Source of the DNA: an uncultured Gammaproteobacteria bacterium | Lineage (GTDB): Bacteria; Patescibacteriota; Microgenomatia; CAZETR01; Amesbacteraceae | Length of the DNA stretch: 64,000 nucleotides | Direction of reading: 5' to 3' | NCBI GenBank assembly: GCA_964366335.1 | Contig: CAYITQ010000001.1 | Coordinates: forward strand, 41,336-105,335 | Shown: positions 2,594 to 40,200 of the stretch, piece by piece | How positions within the stretch are numbered: the first letter of the stretch is position 1 | Layout: each line of letters opens with the position of its first letter | Notes under the pieces: model-generated | Told to the model about the DNA's origin: nothing | Databases searched by the model: none | Seen by the model: the letters and a program-made list of their open reading frames with translations, nothing else | Made by a program: the position numbers and the translations under genes

Positions 2594-3265
2594 TTATAAG
2601 ACATAATCTGATTTTACCTCGTAACTAAGATAGGGAGTTGAATCTTTCTTCAAAATACAAATATCAATTTCTGGCCATCGGTTTGGTAATTTTTGAATTT
2701 CCCCAACCGACTTCCAGCTAATCTGCTTATGTAATTTCATTCTCTCTTTTTGTTCATGACTAACATCTACTCTGTAAATTGTGAACGCGTCATCAAATAA
2801 TACTTCTCCATGTGATGTTTTAACGGTTTTTAAATGTAAGGATTGAAACTTAAAATCTTTTTCGTCAAGAATGATACCAGTATTGGATTCAAAAATACGA
2901 ATTAAAGCACTTTCAATTGATTCTCCAAACCTAGGTTTTCCACTGGGCAAATTATAAAAATTGGTTGTTTCTGTGGGATGTTCTTTTATTAAAAATTCAT
3001 CACCGTAGTTACATAGAAATCCGATGAAAAACGTTTTATATCCAGTGTCCTCTATGGTCGGCAAGTCATAATCAGTAATTACTTTAATCCCCGCAGCGGT
3101 TATTAGATATTTATCAGCCTCTTTTTTCATCAGACCTTTGCTAATTAACTGTTTAAGATGAAACACAACGTTATCATCAAAATCATAGTCGACTGTTAAA
3201 ACAGAGTATTTTTGCCTGTTCTGTATAAGCAATCTTTTTAGTAATACTTTTTGAATTTCGTGCAT
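2594..3265 (-). CDS. putative transcriptional regulator: N-terminal winged-helix DNA-binding domain fused to a degenerate Nudix-like domain (NrtR-like logic, reversed domain order)
   Basis: N-terminal ~65 aa has a wHTH-like pattern (LLKRLL...VVFHLKQLISKGLMKK...YLITAAGIKV). C-terminal GKPRFGESIESALIRIFESNTGI fits the Nudix box spacing Gx5Ex7R..xE..G, but the REUxEE glutamates are replaced (RIFESN). This suggests a ligand-sensing, non-catalytic Nudix. Confidence 0.5.
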   Translation of the reverse strand: MHEIQKVLLKRLLIQNRQKYSVLTVDYDFDDNVVFHLKQLISKGLMKKEADKYLITAAGIKVITDYDLPTIEDTGYKTFFIGFLCNYGDEFLIKEHPTETTNFYNLPSGKPRFGESIESALIRIFESNTGIILDEKDFKFQSLHLKTVKTSHGEVLFDDAFTIYRVDVSHEQKERMKLHKQISWKSVGEIQKLPNRWPEIDICILKKDSTPYLSYEVKSDYVL

Positions 3266-3374
3266 ATAAAAGTACTCTGATTATAGATGATTCTTGGTGT
3301 AGTTAACTACTCTAGAGAATACGACACTTAACTGATAACCTTCCTATAAATACTGAGGGGAGGTGATTTAATAT
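3266..3374. promoter_or_regulatory. divergent promoter/operator region between the regulator and VOC genes
   Basis: Perfect 12-bp palindrome GTAGTTAACTAC at 3299-3310. Minus-strand TATAAT (complement of 3280-3285) lies 14 nt from the regulator start codon. Plus-strand TATAAAT at 3345-3351 and a strong SD GGGGAGGTGA at 3357-3366 lie 8 nt before the ATG at 3375. Confidence 0.5.
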
Positions 3375-3743
3375 ATGTTCAATAAACTATTTGCAGTTTG
3401 CCTATTAGTAGCAGATTTCGAGCGTTCTCTGACTTTTTACAGGGATGCTGTTGGTTTGGAGGTAAATTCCACTGATGGCGAATTCGCAGATTTCAAATTG
3501 GAAGGAACCTCTCTGGCTATATTCAGCCGAAAAACAGCCATTGCAATGTTCCCAGCAAAGAATATGGGGAAAACTGGTGGCGCTGTATATGGATTTCAAG
3601 TTTCTAATGTAGCCAAAACTTGCGAAGCATTAAAAGTTAAGAATGTTGAAATCTTTGAAGGCCCAAAAACAACCACGTGGGGACAAACTGTGGCATACTT
3701 TAAGGACCCAGATGGTAATATATGGGAGGTCTCAGGAAAATAA
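3375..3743 (+). CDS. VOC family protein (glyoxalase/bleomycin-resistance/dioxygenase fold)
   Basis: 122 aa. Paired beta-alpha-beta-beta-beta module signature: FERSLTFYRDAVGLEV ... KDPDGNIWEV. Strong SD upstream. Confidence 0.75.
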   Translation: MFNKLFAVCLLVADFERSLTFYRDAVGLEVNSTDGEFADFKLEGTSLAIFSRKTAIAMFPAKNMGKTGGAVYGFQVSNVAKTCEALKVKNVEIFEGPKTTTWGQTVAYFKDPDGNIWEVSGK

Positions 3744-3744
3744 T

Positions 3745-4125
3745 ATGAATTATAAAGGTGTGATAATCGAAGAGAGTCTTGTAAGCAAGAAGTTGCTTAA
3801 ATTATGCCAAATAATTTCGACTCGAGTTGCCAACGATGACGATCCAAAAACCAATGCGGGTGAACCTAAATGGACTTTACATCAAGTGGAAGTAACAGAG
3901 CAAAATATCGGTGAAGTTGTTAGTCAATTAGGTAAAAATCTTAAACTTCCTAATTGGTGGGCAGATTTATCTTTAGAGGACGAAGTTTTTATAGTTTTCC
4001 ACAACAAAATATTTAAAGGTGGAAATTCTGATCTAGATTTTCGAAAGCATGTAATAAATTACGCCCGTTCCTTAAACCTACCAGATGGACAGATACCATT
4101 AGGTGGTTCTTATGAAGTTAACTAA
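3745..4125 (+). CDS. hypothetical protein
   Basis: ATG at 3745, 2 nt after the VOC stop, preceded by GGAGG. The longer ORF-track call (3643) would overlap the VOC gene. No recognisable motif. Confidence 0.5.
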   Translation: MNYKGVIIEESLVSKKLLKLCQIISTRVANDDDPKTNAGEPKWTLHQVEVTEQNIGEVVSQLGKNLKLPNWWADLSLEDEVFIVFHNKIFKGGNSDLDFRKHVINYARSLNLPDGQIPLGGSYEVN

Positions 4126-5080
4126 GATAAAAATTATTGAGTTGGTGCCATCGGCATCGTTTAATTTTGATGCTACTTTTCATAAACCAGATCACTTTAC
4201 GTCTGGTGATAATCTGTGGGAATCTGGAACGCGTTGGCAGACATGGATATGGAAAGAAAAGTGTCTTGGTATTCGGTTTAAAAATATCGGATCTACTTTA
4301 AATCCAAAAATTGAAATTAGTATTTATTCAGAAGAAAAACTGGACAATGCATTTATTAATGATTTTTTTGATGAAGTCAAATATAGATACAACCTGGAGC
4401 TAGATTTAACATCGTTTTATAAAGAATTTGAAAGCGATAAAATCCTTGGACCCATTATTAAAAAGTGGCAAGGGATGAAACCTGGACACCCCAGTTCCTT
4501 ATACGAATATCTCCTTATCGGAATCGTCCTACAAAATGCAACTGTTAGAAGATCTGTTCAAATGTTTAAGGCACTTCTTGAAAATTATGGAACCGAACTA
4601 GAATTTGATGGTAAAAAACTTTGGTGTTTCTTTAAGCCAGGTAGATTGCAAAAAATAACGGAGGAAGAATTAAGAGTATTAAAGCTTGGATACCGTGCCA
4701 AATCAATAAAGAGGATAGACGATTATTTCGCTCAAGGTTTAATGGATGAAATGGAACTTAGAAAAAAAGATAGAGAAACTCAAATGAATGAGTTATTAAA
4801 ACTATATGGCGTTGGACCAGCAACTGTGTGGTATCTGCTTTTTGATGTATTTCATCATTGGGATTTTTTTAACCATGTTTCTCCTTGGGAACAAAAGATT
4901 TATTCTAAAGTATTTTTTGATGTTGATCCCGAAAATCCTGTACCTGTTGCAAAAATTCTCAAACATTTTGATAGATTCGGGAAATATAAACAGCTTGCTG
5001 TGCACTATATCTGGGAAGATCTGTGGTGGAAAAGACAAAACGAGAGTATCCCTTGGTTGGAAAAACAAATCAGAATATAG
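4112..5080 (+). CDS. HhH-GPD superfamily DNA glycosylase (AlkA/Ogg-like)
   Basis: LYEYLLIGIVLQNATVRRSVQMFKALLENYG (HhH-GPD core helix) followed by the LLKLYGVGPATVWYLLFDVF helix-hairpin-helix and Gly/Pro loop with a following Asp, laid out as in AlkA. N-terminal mixed alpha/beta domain as in AlkA/OGG1. Confidence 0.7.
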   Translation: MKLTKIKIIELVPSASFNFDATFHKPDHFTSGDNLWESGTRWQTWIWKEKCLGIRFKNIGSTLNPKIEISIYSEEKLDNAFINDFFDEVKYRYNLELDLTSFYKEFESDKILGPIIKKWQGMKPGHPSSLYEYLLIGIVLQNATVRRSVQMFKALLENYGTELEFDGKKLWCFFKPGRLQKITEEELRVLKLGYRAKSIKRIDDYFAQGLMDEMELRKKDRETQMNELLKLYGVGPATVWYLLFDVFHHWDFFNHVSPWEQKIYSKVFFDVDPENPVPVAKILKHFDRFGKYKQLAVHYIWEDLWWKRQNESIPWLEKQIRI

Positions 5081-5110
5081 ATGTTTTCACCTCAGAAGTG
5101 GAAAGTATGA

Positions 5111-5211
5111 ACCGTCGACAAGATGTCGACAGTCCAGATCTAGTGAATACTATCAAAGTAGATCAAAAAGGTGTGGCCTTTGAATTTACGCTTCACCTGA
5201 AAGGTGGAAAC
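5111..5211 (+). repeat. intergenic repeat family, copy B
   Basis: CGTCGACAagaTGTCGACA (palindrome 5115-5129)...AGATCT (5136-5141)...ATCAAAGTAGATCAAAAAGGTGTGGCCTTTGAA...CACCTGAAAGGTGGAAAC. Same modules as copy A, partly reordered. Confidence 0.6.
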
Positions 5212-5249: not shown

Positions 5250-5293
5250 ACAAATTAGACTATTAACTAAGTTAAGAATAAAATGGGTCACAC

Positions 5294-5578
5294 ATGGAAA
5301 TAAGGAGATTACCGTCTTCACTTTTAGAAGGAAAGTTCTTACATTGCCAGCCGGTCGAAGATGGTCCGATTATAGAGGCGCCGATTGTTTCGTCTGAAGA
5401 AGGATCAACGCCGGTATTTAATGTTGTAATCGTTTGCCCAGTGAGACGGCCTTCAAGTAATTGCGCATTGAGGATGGTAGCAGGGAGTCAAGACGTTAAA
5501 TGTCAATATTGGGAAGGTGATTCTTGTGGTCAATATCAAATAGTTGGACCAAAAATGGATAGAAAGTCAGAATATTGA
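5294..5578 (+). CDS. hypothetical small Cys-rich protein (94 aa). Coding status uncertain; could instead be a noncoding element.
   Basis: The only ORF of at least 60 aa in 5217-5623. Locally GC-richer than the surroundings. No SD. Preceded by a perfect palindrome TTAACTaAGTTAA (5263-5275). Bounded by repeat copies B and C. Confidence 0.25.
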   Translation: MEIRRLPSSLLEGKFLHCQPVEDGPIIEAPIVSSEEGSTPVFNVVIVCPVRRPSSNCALRMVAGSQDVKCQYWEGDSCGQYQIVGPKMDRKSEY

Positions 5579-5583
5579 ATGGT

Positions 5584-5617
5584 ATCAAAACAGATCAAAA
5601 GGGCGTGGCCTTTTGAG
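5584..5617 (+). repeat. intergenic repeat family, copy C (core only). Hairpin with bidirectional terminator character.
   Basis: ATCAAAACAGATCAAAAGGGCGTGGCCTTTTGAG. AAAAGG/CCTTTT stem with a 6-nt loop, A-run on the left and T-run on the right. Sits between convergent genes. Confidence 0.5.
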
Positions 5618-13841: not shown

Positions 13842-14443
13842 TAGTATTTATTGATGAGTCTGGGATTCATAAGCAAATAGGTCATTCGAGTGCTTCGGTA
13901 GTTTACGTTTGGACTCAGGATTTGGATAAATTTGAAAAAGGAATTGAGAGTTTAAATCAAAAGTTGAAAATAAATTATTTTCATTGGACTGAAAGTAGTT
14001 GGGAATTAAAAGAAAAATTTTTAGTCGGTGTCAGAAAATTAGATTTTCTATTTAAAGTTATCGTTTTTGATAACCCCATTAAATATCAGCAAATAATCGA
14101 GGTGGTCTTTAAGCATTTATTGGTGGAAAATGTGGATAAAGTATTCATTGACGGCAAAAAACCCGAATGGTATGAACGGAAACTAAAAAAAGTTTTAAGG
14201 GATATGGGAAACTCGGTTAAAAAACTGAAGACGATAAGAAATGAGTCGGCACATCCAGGAATCCAATTGGCAGATGCAATTGCTGGTTTATATAGGTACC
14301 AAGCCGATAATCCAAATTCTAAAATTGCGTCGGAGTTAGTGAAGAAATTAAATAAAAATGAAGTAATGTCAAGTAGCTTTAATGCCGATAATTATTTTAC
14401 CAAGAAAAACCCCGACAAAAGCCGGGGTCAGCGTCCCGGATAG
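13838..14443 (+). CDS. DUF3800-like protein (predicted RNase-H-like fold, soluble)
   Basis: N-terminal MIVFIDESGI and C-terminal HPGIQLADAIAGLY motifs match the DUF3800 pattern (YIDESG ... QLADxxAG). No TM segments. ATGA-coupled to the upstream PMT gene. Confidence 0.5.
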   Translation: MIVFIDESGIHKQIGHSSASVVYVWTQDLDKFEKGIESLNQKLKINYFHWTESSWELKEKFLVGVRKLDFLFKVIVFDNPIKYQQIIEVVFKHLLVENVDKVFIDGKKPEWYERKLKKVLRDMGNSVKKLKTIRNESAHPGIQLADAIAGLYRYQADNPNSKIASELVKKLNKNEVMSSSFNADNYFTKKNPDKSRGQRPG

Positions 14444-14517
14444 TTCACCATTGGTGTACTTTTCCACACGGGAATTTGTCACCGGTAGCTAGTTATGAGA
14501 TTATTATACGATAACTT

Positions 14518-37211: not shown

Positions 37212-40200
37212 ATTCAATCGATACTGGTTGGAAATAATATTTATCCTTCTCGTGGGACTAGTGCCACTTTTGTGGTTTAAGGAGGGATATTTAGCTGCCG
37301 GCCATGATATGAGCTATCCATTAGCACCTATAGATTTTTGGCTTGATAGGTTATTTGTTTGGACAGATAGGATAGGAAGTTTTGGTTCAAATCAGACTGA
37401 TGCAATCCCTGGTATTTTTATACACGGACTGCAGGCACTTTTTTATTATGTTACAGGTTCATTACAACTAGCCCAAAAACTTGATTTTATTTTTTGGTTT
37501 GCCCTCCCGGGAATAACAATGTATATTTTACTTCGATCTCTCCACTCCAAAAAAGAAGAGTACATTATAAGAATATCGGGTTCTTTGTTCTATATGTTGA
37601 ACCACTATTTACTCCAAGGATGGATTATTGCTGAGATGTCAAAGTTTTCTATAGTTGCCGCCATTCCACTGATAGTACTTTTTACCGTGAATGTAATGTA
37701 TAAAGAGATGTCTATTATTAAGAACGCACTCCTTGTTGGATTTACTCTTTTTTTTCTCAATGGCGGAGCCGGAATTCCTTTGTGGGGTGGTTTGGCCATA
37801 GTCTGGATAACTACCATTGTGGTGTTGTTTATATTAAATCCTCGGCTTATATGGCACAAACTGCGCCGGGGACTGGTCTTTATTTTTCTTTCCACTCTTT
37901 TTATTGGTGTCCTCAACTGGTATTGGATTTATCCTTATGTGCAGTCCTTTAGCCAGAACTATACCACCAGAGTGGCATCCAGTGGTGGTAACGAAGGGGC
38001 AATTAGATGGAGTCAGGAAATAAGTAAAAACGCCAGTTTTGATAATTTAATCAAATTACAAAGTATTCCCGATTGGTACGACAACCCCGAACATCCTTAT
38101 GCTAATAATTTTTTTAACAACGACTTCTTAATCTTTCTAAGTGTGGTGATCCCCCTGGTTAGCTTTGTGGGTCTCTGGAGCAAGAAGAATGAACAAAGAC
38201 ACCAATTGGTGTATAAAGTGCTGGCTCTGGGAATTATCATAGTGGCCTTACCTTTTGTAGCGGGGAGTCATTTACCTACCGGTGTAGTCTACGACTTTCT
38301 GCTTAAGAATCTTCCCGGGTTTTCCATATTCCGTACTCCATTTTATAAATTTGCCATGGTTTTGTGGTTTGCCTATTCTTATTTATTTGGTGTCGGTCTA
38401 AAAAACATTATTGACACTATTAAAGTTCGTCAATTTTTTACCATCGGAATTTTTGGTGTTTCCCTAATAATGCTTGGTATCTATAATTATCCATTCTTTA
38501 CGGGGTCTTTTTTCAACTGGTCAAAAAAATACTCAACCATGGTCAAAGTACCTAGTTATATTTTCTCCGCGAAAGACCAGATAGACAGTAACAAATTCTC
38601 CACCCACACTCTTATTTTACCACAGCTTGACCCTAGAACTAAGTACGAGACTAATGATTGGAAATATTTTAGTCTCTCCACCATTCCCAGCATACTTACC
38701 CGCCGGCCGGTAGTAATCAATGATGCCACTCTTATAAATTGGGAAGACGTTTTGGTCAGTGCTGTGTATACTCAATTGCAAAAGAAAGGTGACTCTCAGC
38801 TGTTAGATTATACTGGCGTGGACACGGCAATTTGGAGAAATGACTTTTCTAGCCGTGATGACACACAGTATTCTATTAAAGCAAATAGAACCATCCTTGA
38901 TAACAATAAAAAGTTTACATTCCGAAAAAGAATTGGTCAATGGGATTTTTATGATATAGCCAGCGAAAACTTAAAGCCCTTAATATATTTTCCACAATCC
39001 GTTGTCTATATCAAATCCGAACCCGCATACCTGGCTTATATTGCCGATATTCCTAGTCTGGATTCTCTGGGTGATGCCTTTGCTTTGGCTGATCCGGTAA
39101 ACCCCATGGATATTATTAAGAACAAGATTTCACAATATGTGGTTCAGGCTTCGTGTATTAATTGTGATCTGAAAAAAACCGAAAGTGTGTCCATTATAAG
39201 TTCAAAGCCTCCCAGGATTATGCCGGGCGGCAAGTTGTATTGGCTTATTAGACTTAGGGAAAAGAATGTGAGAAAAAAGATTGTTGAGGTGCCAAAGTTG
39301 ATAGACTTTGATTTAGGTATCATGGCCAAAAATGCCGCAGCCTTGAAAGTGTTAATTGTAAACAAAAGCAAAGATAAAGCAGTTGAAAGCATAATAAATG
39401 ACTGGTATGCCCGTTTGGACAAAATCAAGTCAAACTATCTTTCAATTCAAGATCAAAGTTTAAAACAAGAAAAATCAAAAGATATTTATCGTTATTTGTG
39501 GTCTTTCGTTCTCGGTAGTCAGGAGTGGAAACATCTTGCAGAAAGCCCATCAACAGTCGAAAAACTGTCAGCTTTTGAAAATGATACCCGTTTGTATATT
39601 AACGAGTTGGGTTTGAAACCTGCTACGCTCCCGCCTTCTTTTGTCGAAAAAATGGTCTACAAAGTGACTATTCCTGTAGAGGGAAATTACCAAATCAGCC
39701 TCTATTCGGATCTTTTGACAAAAAGTAGCGTTGTCATTCTGGATGATAATCCAATCGGCATTAGTCGGTATTCCCCGGTCCGTAAATGGTTTCAGAGTGA
39801 GTTTATAAAACTTAGTGCGGGGGAACATACTCTTTCTTTGTCGAAATCCACGAAAAAACCTGAAGTCTATAATAATGTAGAATTGGAAGCTCCGTCTGCT
39901 AAATTAGTATGTTCTGACATTGATCTGGGTAATGTTGATCCAGAAAACACCTACACAATCCGATTCAATTATAGCAGCATTTCGGATCGGCCGCTTAATT
40001 TTCAAGCTCTTGAAAAGAGTGAGACCGCAACTGAATGGACTGTCAATAAAGTTTATCCAAATGTAAAGGAGTTATCAAAATCATATCAGGTCGATTTCAA
40101 ATATGAACCGGGAGCGCTTGCTGGGACCCTGTCTTTACGGTTCTGTATGGATGGATATTATTTATCACCAACATATGCCAAAGTCGAAGACTTGTCCATG

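Follow-up and report, generated by a model that had tools for sequence, protein, structure and literature searches.

The window analysed here is a 64-kb stretch of contig CAYITQ010000001.1, from a genome of low G+C content (GC, ~30-45%) found in the 0.1-µm filter fraction of Hainich groundwater metagenomes. Near its start lies a gene that we call REG, for regulator gene. It encodes a protein with a predicted N-terminal winged helix-turn-helix (wHTH) domain and a C-terminal domain of Nudix fold whose catalytic box is degenerate, and it is transcribed away from a divergent group of genes for a VOC (glyoxalase/bleomycin-resistance) superfamily protein, a 126-amino-acid (aa) open reading frame (ORF) and an Ogg1-like protein. 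The gap between REG and the VOC gene holds a 20-bp inverted repeat that accompanies REG from genome to genome and that we consider its candidate operator. The features of REG itself are as follows:

2594-3265, minus strand: REG, regulator gene, 223 aa, wHTH plus degenerate Nudix domain (ORF, orthologue alignment and AlphaFold2 model)
3068-3265, minus strand: predicted N-terminal wHTH domain, residues 1 to ~66
within 3068-3265, minus strand: putative recognition helix, residues 33-42 (N32..H36-L-K-Q-L40), and wing, strands 46-55
2612-3040, minus strand: predicted C-terminal Nudix-fold domain, residues ~76-218, proposed ligand sensor
2873-2941, minus strand: degenerate Nudix box, G109-KPRFG-E115-SIESALI-R123-I-F-E-S-N128-T-G-I (from the translation)

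The start codon of REG is confirmed by its orthologues, all of which begin MH.IQK. In Pfam the NUDIX model matched residues 84-194 with 21.6 bits, just above the gathering score of 21.1 that serves as cutoff, and on the winged-helix side HTH_45 (residues 36-66) and DUF7347 gave weak matches, while NCBIfam and PDB sequences returned weak matches of MutT type alone. AlphaFold2, run with the family alignment, predicted two domains with a mean predicted local distance difference test (pLDDT) of 88.3, a predicted template modelling score (pTM) of 0.66 and a linker of lower confidence at residues ~65-78. Specifically, the N-terminal part of the model has the topology H-H-H-strand-strand-H, and in a Foldseek search of the PDB the C-terminal half matched Nudix enzymes, with GDP-mannose mannosyl hydrolase as the best match (3e-7) and Bacillus halodurans MutT, YmfB, MTH1 and the Nudix domain of NrtR as further ones. 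The predicted structure thus shows both folds, a wHTH and the alpha/beta/alpha fold of the Nudix superfamily. The box keeps the G-x5-E-x7-R spacing and carries I, S and N at the positions of the REUxEE glutamates, and so departs from the Nudix hydrolase signature GX5EX7REUXEEXGU with its three REUXEE glutamates. A preliminary description of this DNA, made from its letters alone, had proposed just such an N-terminal wHTH and such a C-terminal Nudix domain, with a correctly spaced box and replaced glutamates, and the HTH_45 match and helix-strand topology, the NUDIX score and Foldseek matches, and the residues read from the translation bear it out on each count.

The unusual box is a trait of the whole REG family. 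More than 150 homologues, nearly all of 222-226 aa, are present in a large protein database, under no names other than ‘hypothetical protein’ or ‘ADP-ribose pyrophosphatase YjhB (NUDIX family)’. In a 30-sequence alignment that reaches down to 51% identity the box reads GKPxFGE-x7-R-T-F-x-x-N, and outside it N105, H144-L-K-T147, F157-D-D159, F161 and W197-P-E199 are invariant. None of the 118 full-length close homologues has Glu at box positions 2 and 6, 32 of the 118 have it at position 5, and the complete triad occurs in 0/118; in the aligned sequences, the catalytic Glu triad is lost throughout the family. An exhaustive search of 1.84 billion cluster representatives recovered 142 clusters that share the length and architecture of REG. 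Distant members of this superfamily match Pfam NUDIX with values up to 7e-18, and winged-helix models match 35-36 of 43 members (HTH_27 matches 1/43). Throughout the superfamily two residues of the wHTH never vary, H36 of the putative recognition helix and Y53 of the wing. Distant members (20-30% identity) carry canonical boxes, for example RELHEETG, and all three box glutamates are present in 18 distant representatives. The shared architecture, together with the canonical boxes of these distant members, places REG, as judged from the sequences, as a degenerate-box branch within a wider wHTH-Nudix superfamily, which offers a natural series for studying how an enzyme changes into a sensor.

For genomic context we collected 24 loci from species-representative genomes as well as loci of more distant members, which we number with the prefix L. 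Where the genomes are so named, they belong to Woese-, Shapiro-, Roizman-, Dojka- and Doudnabacteria, to Saccharibacteria and to the ‘Patescibacteria group’; the titles of several metagenome-assembled genomes among the REG loci read Gamma- or Alphaproteobacteria instead. So far the REG family has been seen in Patescibacteria only, among them ultra-small bacteria of groundwater. To our knowledge, the regulators of the Patescibacteria (candidate phyla radiation) are almost uncharacterised, and these organisms are uncultured.

A conserved candidate operator between two putative divergent promoters

The 109-bp gap between REG and the divergent gene that starts at position 3375 contains the following features, the promoter elements being candidates read from sequence:

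3295-3314, no strand: candidate operator, 20-bp inverted repeat with the family consensus TAGWGTAGT-NN-ACTACWCTA (conservation across loci)
3299-3310, no strand: perfect 12-bp palindrome GTAGTTAACTAC, the core of the operator candidate
3280-3285, minus strand: candidate -10 TATAAT of the REG promoter
3313-3318, plus strand: TAGAGA (TAGAAn in the family), candidate -35 of the VOC promoter, from a conserved block tTCTAGa beside the core
3336-3341, plus strand: candidate -10 TAACCT (pattern TAnnnT) of the VOC promoter, from its locked position
3359-3366, plus strand: VOC Shine-Dalgarno sequence GGAGGTGA, also in L001-L005, L007 and L024

The perfect palindrome at 3299-3310, already pointed out in the preliminary description, proved to be the centre of a larger conserved element. 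We observed the 20-bp element just upstream of the REG start codon in 26/26 family loci with upstream sequence, namely 25 genome and contig loci and the window, at protein identities down to 39%. Its core, GTAG-N4-CTAC, is exact in 22/27 family loci with upstream sequence and has one-mismatch variants in four of the five others, and the remaining 214 kb of the family loci contain 0 occurrences of it. In an anchored alignment, symmetric conservation extends past the core and yields the 20-bp inverted repeat, whose half-site centres lie about one helical turn apart. A metagenome scan with TCTAGWGTAGTNNACTACAC returned 39 stretches, of which 23 immediately adjoin the start of a REG homologue, 21 of these 23 with the VOC gene as well, so that conservation of the palindrome in orthologous loci comprises these 23 metagenome loci in addition to the 26/26 above. 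The other 16 stretches fall into a few unrelated sequence families; our own rough estimate of chance matches to the 18-base pattern is a few tens, for a collection assumed to hold ~5e11 bases. The operator is the one site of its kind in the 64-kb window, where no extra operator copies were found and the sole other match to GTAGTNNACTAC with at most one mismatch, at 38284, is within chance expectation; complete genomes that carry the REG family include CP129477.1 and OZ246402.1. At L025 and L029, which encode relatives with 22-27% identity and canonical boxes, no similar palindrome was found and the neighbours differ too, which makes the operator and the regulon specific to the degenerate-box subfamily.

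The operator also keeps a fixed position relative to two divergent promoters. On the REG side, it lies 28-49 nt before the ATG in 12 loci, the window included, and 9 of these 12 long-leader loci have a perfect TATAAT 11-21 nt past the operator core. In the window the TATAAT lies 13 nt downstream of the palindrome, placing the operator centre at about -31.5 of the REG promoter, a geometry that agrees with the earlier proposal of a palindrome overlapping the regulator's own -35. In the 14 remaining loci (‘class B’), the operator ends 3-10 nt before the REG ATG and no Shine-Dalgarno sequence is present; its centre and right half often read TAAACT or TACACT at a spacing that suits a leaderless transcript, and the REG transcript of these 14 loci would probably be leaderless.

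On the VOC side, a hexamer of the pattern TAnnnT starts 25 nt past the core in 19/25 genome loci and 24-26 nt past it in 25/25; in independent metagenome loci the corresponding counts are 16/19 and 19/19, so that the pattern stands 25 ± 1 nt from the operator in 44/44 genome and metagenome loci, compared with 0/9 at 25 nt among unrelated hits to the operator motif. TAGAAn stands 17 nt upstream of this position-locked element and has 2 nt in common with the outer arm of the operator. In L006, L009 and L022 the VOC ATG follows TAnnnT after 5-6 nt, which identifies the hexamer as the probable -10 box of a leaderless mRNA, whereas other loci, including the window, have a VOC leader with GGAGGTGA. 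The apparently leaderless genes of the module hint that leaderless translation may be frequent in these Patescibacteria. The operator thereby spans about -53 to -34 of the VOC promoter, with its centre at about -43.5, and sits between the two promoters. It is conserved, unique and fixed in its promoter geometry.

A conserved dyad in a gene's own promoter region that co-occurs with that gene is what would be expected of an autoregulated one-component factor, and the REG loci show exactly this arrangement. It could be argued that another factor binds the palindrome, or that the palindrome is part of a conserved bidirectional promoter, with REG serving a non-regulatory function such as lesion or nucleotide-pool surveillance together with the Ogg1-like protein. 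The partner genes do point to DNA-damage biology, and that REG binds the site is something we infer. Nevertheless, the site travels with REG across ~49 loci in unrelated contexts and occurs nowhere else in their flanks, the spacing of its half-sites by about one helical turn fits a dimeric wHTH protein, and the overlap with the gene's own promoter is the usual signature of autoregulation, and we therefore regard a non-regulatory REG as very unlikely.

Two further observations concern the operator sequence. Contig CAZVJU010000003.1 carries two paralogous regulator-operator-VOC modules (L019 and L024) ~6.5 kb apart, and the centres and flanks of their operators differ (AGAGTAGTAAACTACACT vs GGGTAGTCGGCTACACC), possibly an example from nature of a duplication after which operator and regulator diverged. 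Three unrelated metagenome contigs (L043, L054 and L062, GC 0.28-0.31) contain several tandem copies of TTTCTAGTCTAGTTGACTACACT spaced ~45-60 nt apart. This dyad resembles the operator, yet no regulator homologue is detectable on these contigs, and the array may be iteron-like or an operator array of another wHTH protein.

Genes divergent from REG

The candidate operator faces a group of three genes:

3375-3743, plus strand: VOC (glyoxalase/bleomycin-resistance) superfamily protein, 122 aa, the divergent gene (Pfam)
3745-4125, plus strand: 126-aa ORF, facultative operon member (gene call and homologues)
4103-5080, plus strand: Ogg1-like HhH-GPD protein, frequent third operon member (TIGR00588 and PDB profile hits)

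By ORF clustering of 26 loci, the VOC gene stands divergent from REG in 23 and the Ogg1-like gene lies downstream of the VOC gene in 11, and there were no other neighbours common to more than five of these 26 loci. The module occurs in otherwise non-syntenic contexts across genomes, and the partnership of the REG, VOC and Ogg1-like genes is conserved.

Both named partners have lost residues that define their enzymatic relatives. The VOC protein matches the Pfam models Glyoxalase (3.6e-17) and Ble-like_N (2e-9), and among the solved structures closest to it are lactoylglutathione lyases, Streptomyces glyoxalase/bleomycin-resistance proteins and a mitomycin-binding protein. Aligned with E. coli GloA, it lacks three of the four GloA metal ligands (the equivalents of H5, E56 and H74), as do all 22 aligned orthologues. 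Rather than a glyoxalase, it may be a protein that binds or sequesters a compound, in the way of the VOC proteins that bind bleomycin and mitomycin. The Ogg1-like protein scores 51 bits against TIGR00588 ogg, below the cutoff, and its PDB profile matches are 4ejy (deposited as a 3-methyladenine DNA glycosylase; 1e-16) and 3f10 (an 8-oxoguanine DNA glycosylase; 1.6e-12). Its catalytic Lys is replaced by Ala240 (GVGPA for GVGPK) and its catalytic Asp by Ser260 (VSPW for VDTW), and both replacements are invariant in nine orthologues (the window and L001, L003, L004, L007, L008, L009, L020 and L026). Such a protein would either bind lesions without catalysis or be a glycosylase whose active site has moved elsewhere. 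With metal ligands missing from one and the Lys/Asp dyad from the other, the VOC and Ogg1-like proteins are oddities that merit study in their own right.

The 126-aa ORF belongs to the module in at least seven loci (the window and L006, L013, L046, L047, L053 and L060), and in L013 it takes the place of the VOC gene as the gene directly divergent from REG. Residues Y3, G5, I8-E-E-S-L12, W43-T44, H46, W71, A73-D74 and F85 are invariant in its family, and profile searches gave no Pfam or PDB match.

The four-gene module is bracketed by a direct repeat of ~85 nt whose copies, at 2500-2590 just 3' of REG and at 5095-5185 just 3' of the Ogg1-like gene, are ~75% identical. A third, partial copy follows 400 nt further on at 5583-5609, and the core of the copy 3' of REG is also found in L063, a relative at 77% identity. 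The repeat could be a common terminator element or a trace of cassette mobility.

Regulatory model, candidate ligands and known regulators

We consider it probable that REG is a one-component transcription factor that acts as a dimeric auto-repressor of the local divergent operon and is released from DNA by a ligand. In this model, the 20-bp inverted repeat, with its centre at 3304/3305, would receive the two MarR-like winged helices of a REG dimer. The bound protein would abut and overlap the -35 of the VOC-operon promoter; in loci arranged like the window, it would cover its own -35 and spacer, and wherever the site directly adjoins the ATG, it would cover its own -10 and start site. With the site lying over both promoters, REG most likely represses its own gene together with the operon of the VOC gene, the 126-aa ORF and the Ogg1-like gene. 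By analogy to NrtR and AraR, the Nudix-fold domain, which has lost the metal-binding glutamates and kept invariant basic, acidic and aromatic residues, would be the ligand sensor, and ligand binding would release REG from its site, inducing the operon. We infer rather than show the identity of REG as the protein bound at the site, its dimerisation, the sign of its regulation and the binding of a ligand by the Nudix domain. The unit of protein, 20-bp operator, two promoters and target genes is complete and testable, and could be reconstituted in vitro or in E. coli.

As for the ligand, the most suggestive clues, the Ogg1-like partner and a weak alignment of REG with the base-pocket residues of MTH1, point to a purine nucleotide or base that is damaged or oxidised. 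In MTH1, N33, F72, W117 and D119/D120 form the pocket that recognises oxidised purines. In weak profile comparisons with human MTH1, the invariant N105, F157 and W197-P-E199 of REG align with N33, F72 and W117-P-D119, and, counted from the Nudix-box Gly, N105 of REG and N33 of MTH1 are in register. An equally reasonable alternative would be a genotoxic small molecule that is handled by the VOC protein. We can picture REG as a sensor of damage to the nucleotide pool or to DNA, in which a dead MTH1-like pocket binds an oxidised or alkylated purine (e.g., 8-oxo-(d)GTP or 2-OH-dATP) and thereby de-represses a damage operon of the VOC and Ogg1-like genes, and we offer this scheme as a speculation with a small chance of being right. 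If the ligand is indeed a damaged nucleotide, REG would represent a novel way of sensing damage, in which a pseudo-enzyme of minimal-genome bacteria reports damaged nucleotides directly to transcription.

Several observations weigh against a ligand-released auto-repressor or against its proposed ligand. Within the window alone, the palindrome GTAGTTAACTAC is no more than would occur by chance, as the 64 kb contain 27 perfect 12-bp palindromes vs 22.4 ± 5.4 in shuffles; it is through conservation across loci that it becomes highly significant. The VOC and Ogg1-like proteins both look non-catalytic by canonical criteria, which leaves the theme of the operon obscure. The alignment of REG with MTH1 is weak (hhalign probability 8.5%, E 0.004), and with the subfamily profile the WPE segment receives an hmmsearch domain score of -2.4 bits.

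A further such point is the operator centre at about -43.5 of the VOC promoter, which would also suit a class II activator and makes repression there a matter of interpretation. Class II activators classically bind near -43.5. The same protein at the same site could then repress its own gene but activate the VOC promoter in a class II-like manner, liganded or unliganded, and the candidate -35 TAGAAn, which matches TTGACA at 3-4 of six positions, would fit, as poor -35 elements of this kind are common at activator-dependent promoters. However, the outer arm of the palindrome includes bases of this -35, an overlap that speaks for competition with sigma, and divergent wHTH regulators of the MarR kind usually repress. 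Nor can the quality of the -35 be judged as long as Patescibacteria have no established promoter consensus. Activation of the VOC promoter therefore seems to us unlikely.

The last of these points concerns catalysis. Judged by its absent glutamates, REG would be catalytically degenerate, and a degenerate Nudix box is no proof of inactivity. GDP-mannose mannosyl hydrolase, the best structural match of REG, is active despite a non-canonical Nudix box, and the invariant His, Asp and Glu residues of REG outside the box may form an alternative active site. REG could accordingly be imagined as a bifunctional enzyme-regulator like BirA or NadR, with hydrolysis of a nucleotide-type substrate through H144, D158, D159 and E199 coupled to DNA binding, all the more as distant relatives that are built alike carry canonical boxes and may themselves be active. 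Against this, the triad of box glutamates is gone in 118/118 close homologues, and in NrtR proteins perturbed signatures correlate with the lack of measurable activity (PMC2330246), and we judge a bifunctional REG to be improbable.

The ligand-released auto-repressor that we favour has one close parallel in design. In NrtR, a Nudix domain with a perturbed signature and no activity senses ADP-ribose, and the ligand relieves DNA binding (PMC2330246). As the preliminary description had correctly stated, the order of the domains is opposite: NrtR proteins (e.g., Shewanella oneidensis NrtR, PDB 3gz5; Rodionov et al. 2008, PMC2330246) have an N-terminal Nudix domain and a C-terminal wHTH, whereas REG is reversed. 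The two also differ in that the wHTH of REG is MarR/HTH_45-like and that of NrtR is of another type, in that the regulon of REG consists of VOC and Ogg1-like genes and that of NrtR serves NAD metabolism, and in their unrelated operator sequences. The NrtR-family arabinose regulator of Bacteroides thetaiotaomicron, BtAraR (PDB 5bs6; PMC4666351), has the NrtR domain order and controls genes for sugar utilisation. We therefore rejected REG as a member of the NrtR family on the grounds of its domain order and of a regulon with no link to NAD or sugar metabolism. The reversed order, the other wHTH type, the other regulon and the restriction, so far, to Patescibacteria make REG an independent fusion that is convergent with NrtR.

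Whether REG might still sense ADP-ribose or an NAD metabolite with swapped domains, following the NrtR-type logic that the preliminary description had brought in, is a separate matter, on which the gene context gives no support. The conserved neighbours include no gene of NAD metabolism, REG is closest in its Nudix sequence to the MutT, NUDT18 and NUDT15 types and not to ADP-ribose pyrophosphatases, and the MarR-like, N-terminal wHTH speaks for an independent fusion, all of which makes NrtR-type sensing extremely unlikely.

Other known systems share parts of the REG design. MarR repressors (E. coli MarR, 5h3r; HpaR, 7el2) have the same wHTH fold that is predicted for REG, in which a complete Nudix-fold domain stands in place of the MarR dimerisation and ligand helices; the Pfam search gave no MarR match in REG. 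Enzymes of MutT/MTH1 type (E. coli MutT, human MTH1/NUDT1, NUDT15 and NUDT18) are its closest Nudix sequences and among its closest structures, and compared with them REG lacks the catalytic glutamates, has an added DNA-binding domain and has a possible, weakly supported correspondence of pocket residues. The recruitment of an enzyme fold as the sensor of a DNA-binding protein is also known from BirA, NadR, ROK-family repressors and PutA (PMC2330246), which follow the same design principle with different folds and of which several keep catalysis. Full-text searches for a regulator with an N-terminal wHTH and a Nudix domain found only NrtR/AraR papers, with subscription journals incompletely covered. 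REG would thus represent a second family of ‘dead Nudix’ regulators, known to date from Patescibacteria alone, which suggests that the use of a dead Nudix domain as a sensor was invented at least twice, in opposite domain orders and with different DNA-binding modules. The central reading of the preliminary description, a wHTH and degenerate-Nudix regulator with a palindromic operator candidate, emerges strengthened on all three points at which it was most exposed, with a Nudix fold in the C-terminal half, a DNA-binding fold in the N-terminal segment and a palindrome that orthologous loci conserve.

Second palindrome and other features of the window

Beyond the four-gene module, we examined a second palindrome and the ORF that follows it:

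5263-5275: second palindrome, TTAACTAAGTTAA, upstream of ORF 5294
5294-5578, plus strand: ORF of 94 aa

The preliminary description had pointed out this second, everted palindrome. It is indeed present at 5263-5275, and a role as an operator did not hold up. For palindromes made of 6-nt arms around a 1-nt gap, the count in the window is at chance level (23 vs 22.5 ± 4.9 in shuffles), TTAACTAAGTTAA does not occur in any of the 71 related loci, and no similarity to the region is detectable in the closest relative, L001. We rejected it as a second operator, given its chance frequency, its lack of conservation and its lack of GTAG/CTAC half-sites. The ORF at 5294-5578 lies in a locally GC-richer stretch (0.39-0.46) and is of uncertain coding status, with no Pfam match, no similarity of the region in the closest relative and no Rfam family at gathering score there that would mark it as an RNA gene. 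The only Rfam match of the window above gathering score is a DUF3800-II RNA (RF02961) at 14426-14496 on the minus strand, with 60.5 bits and an E value of 5.7e-10.

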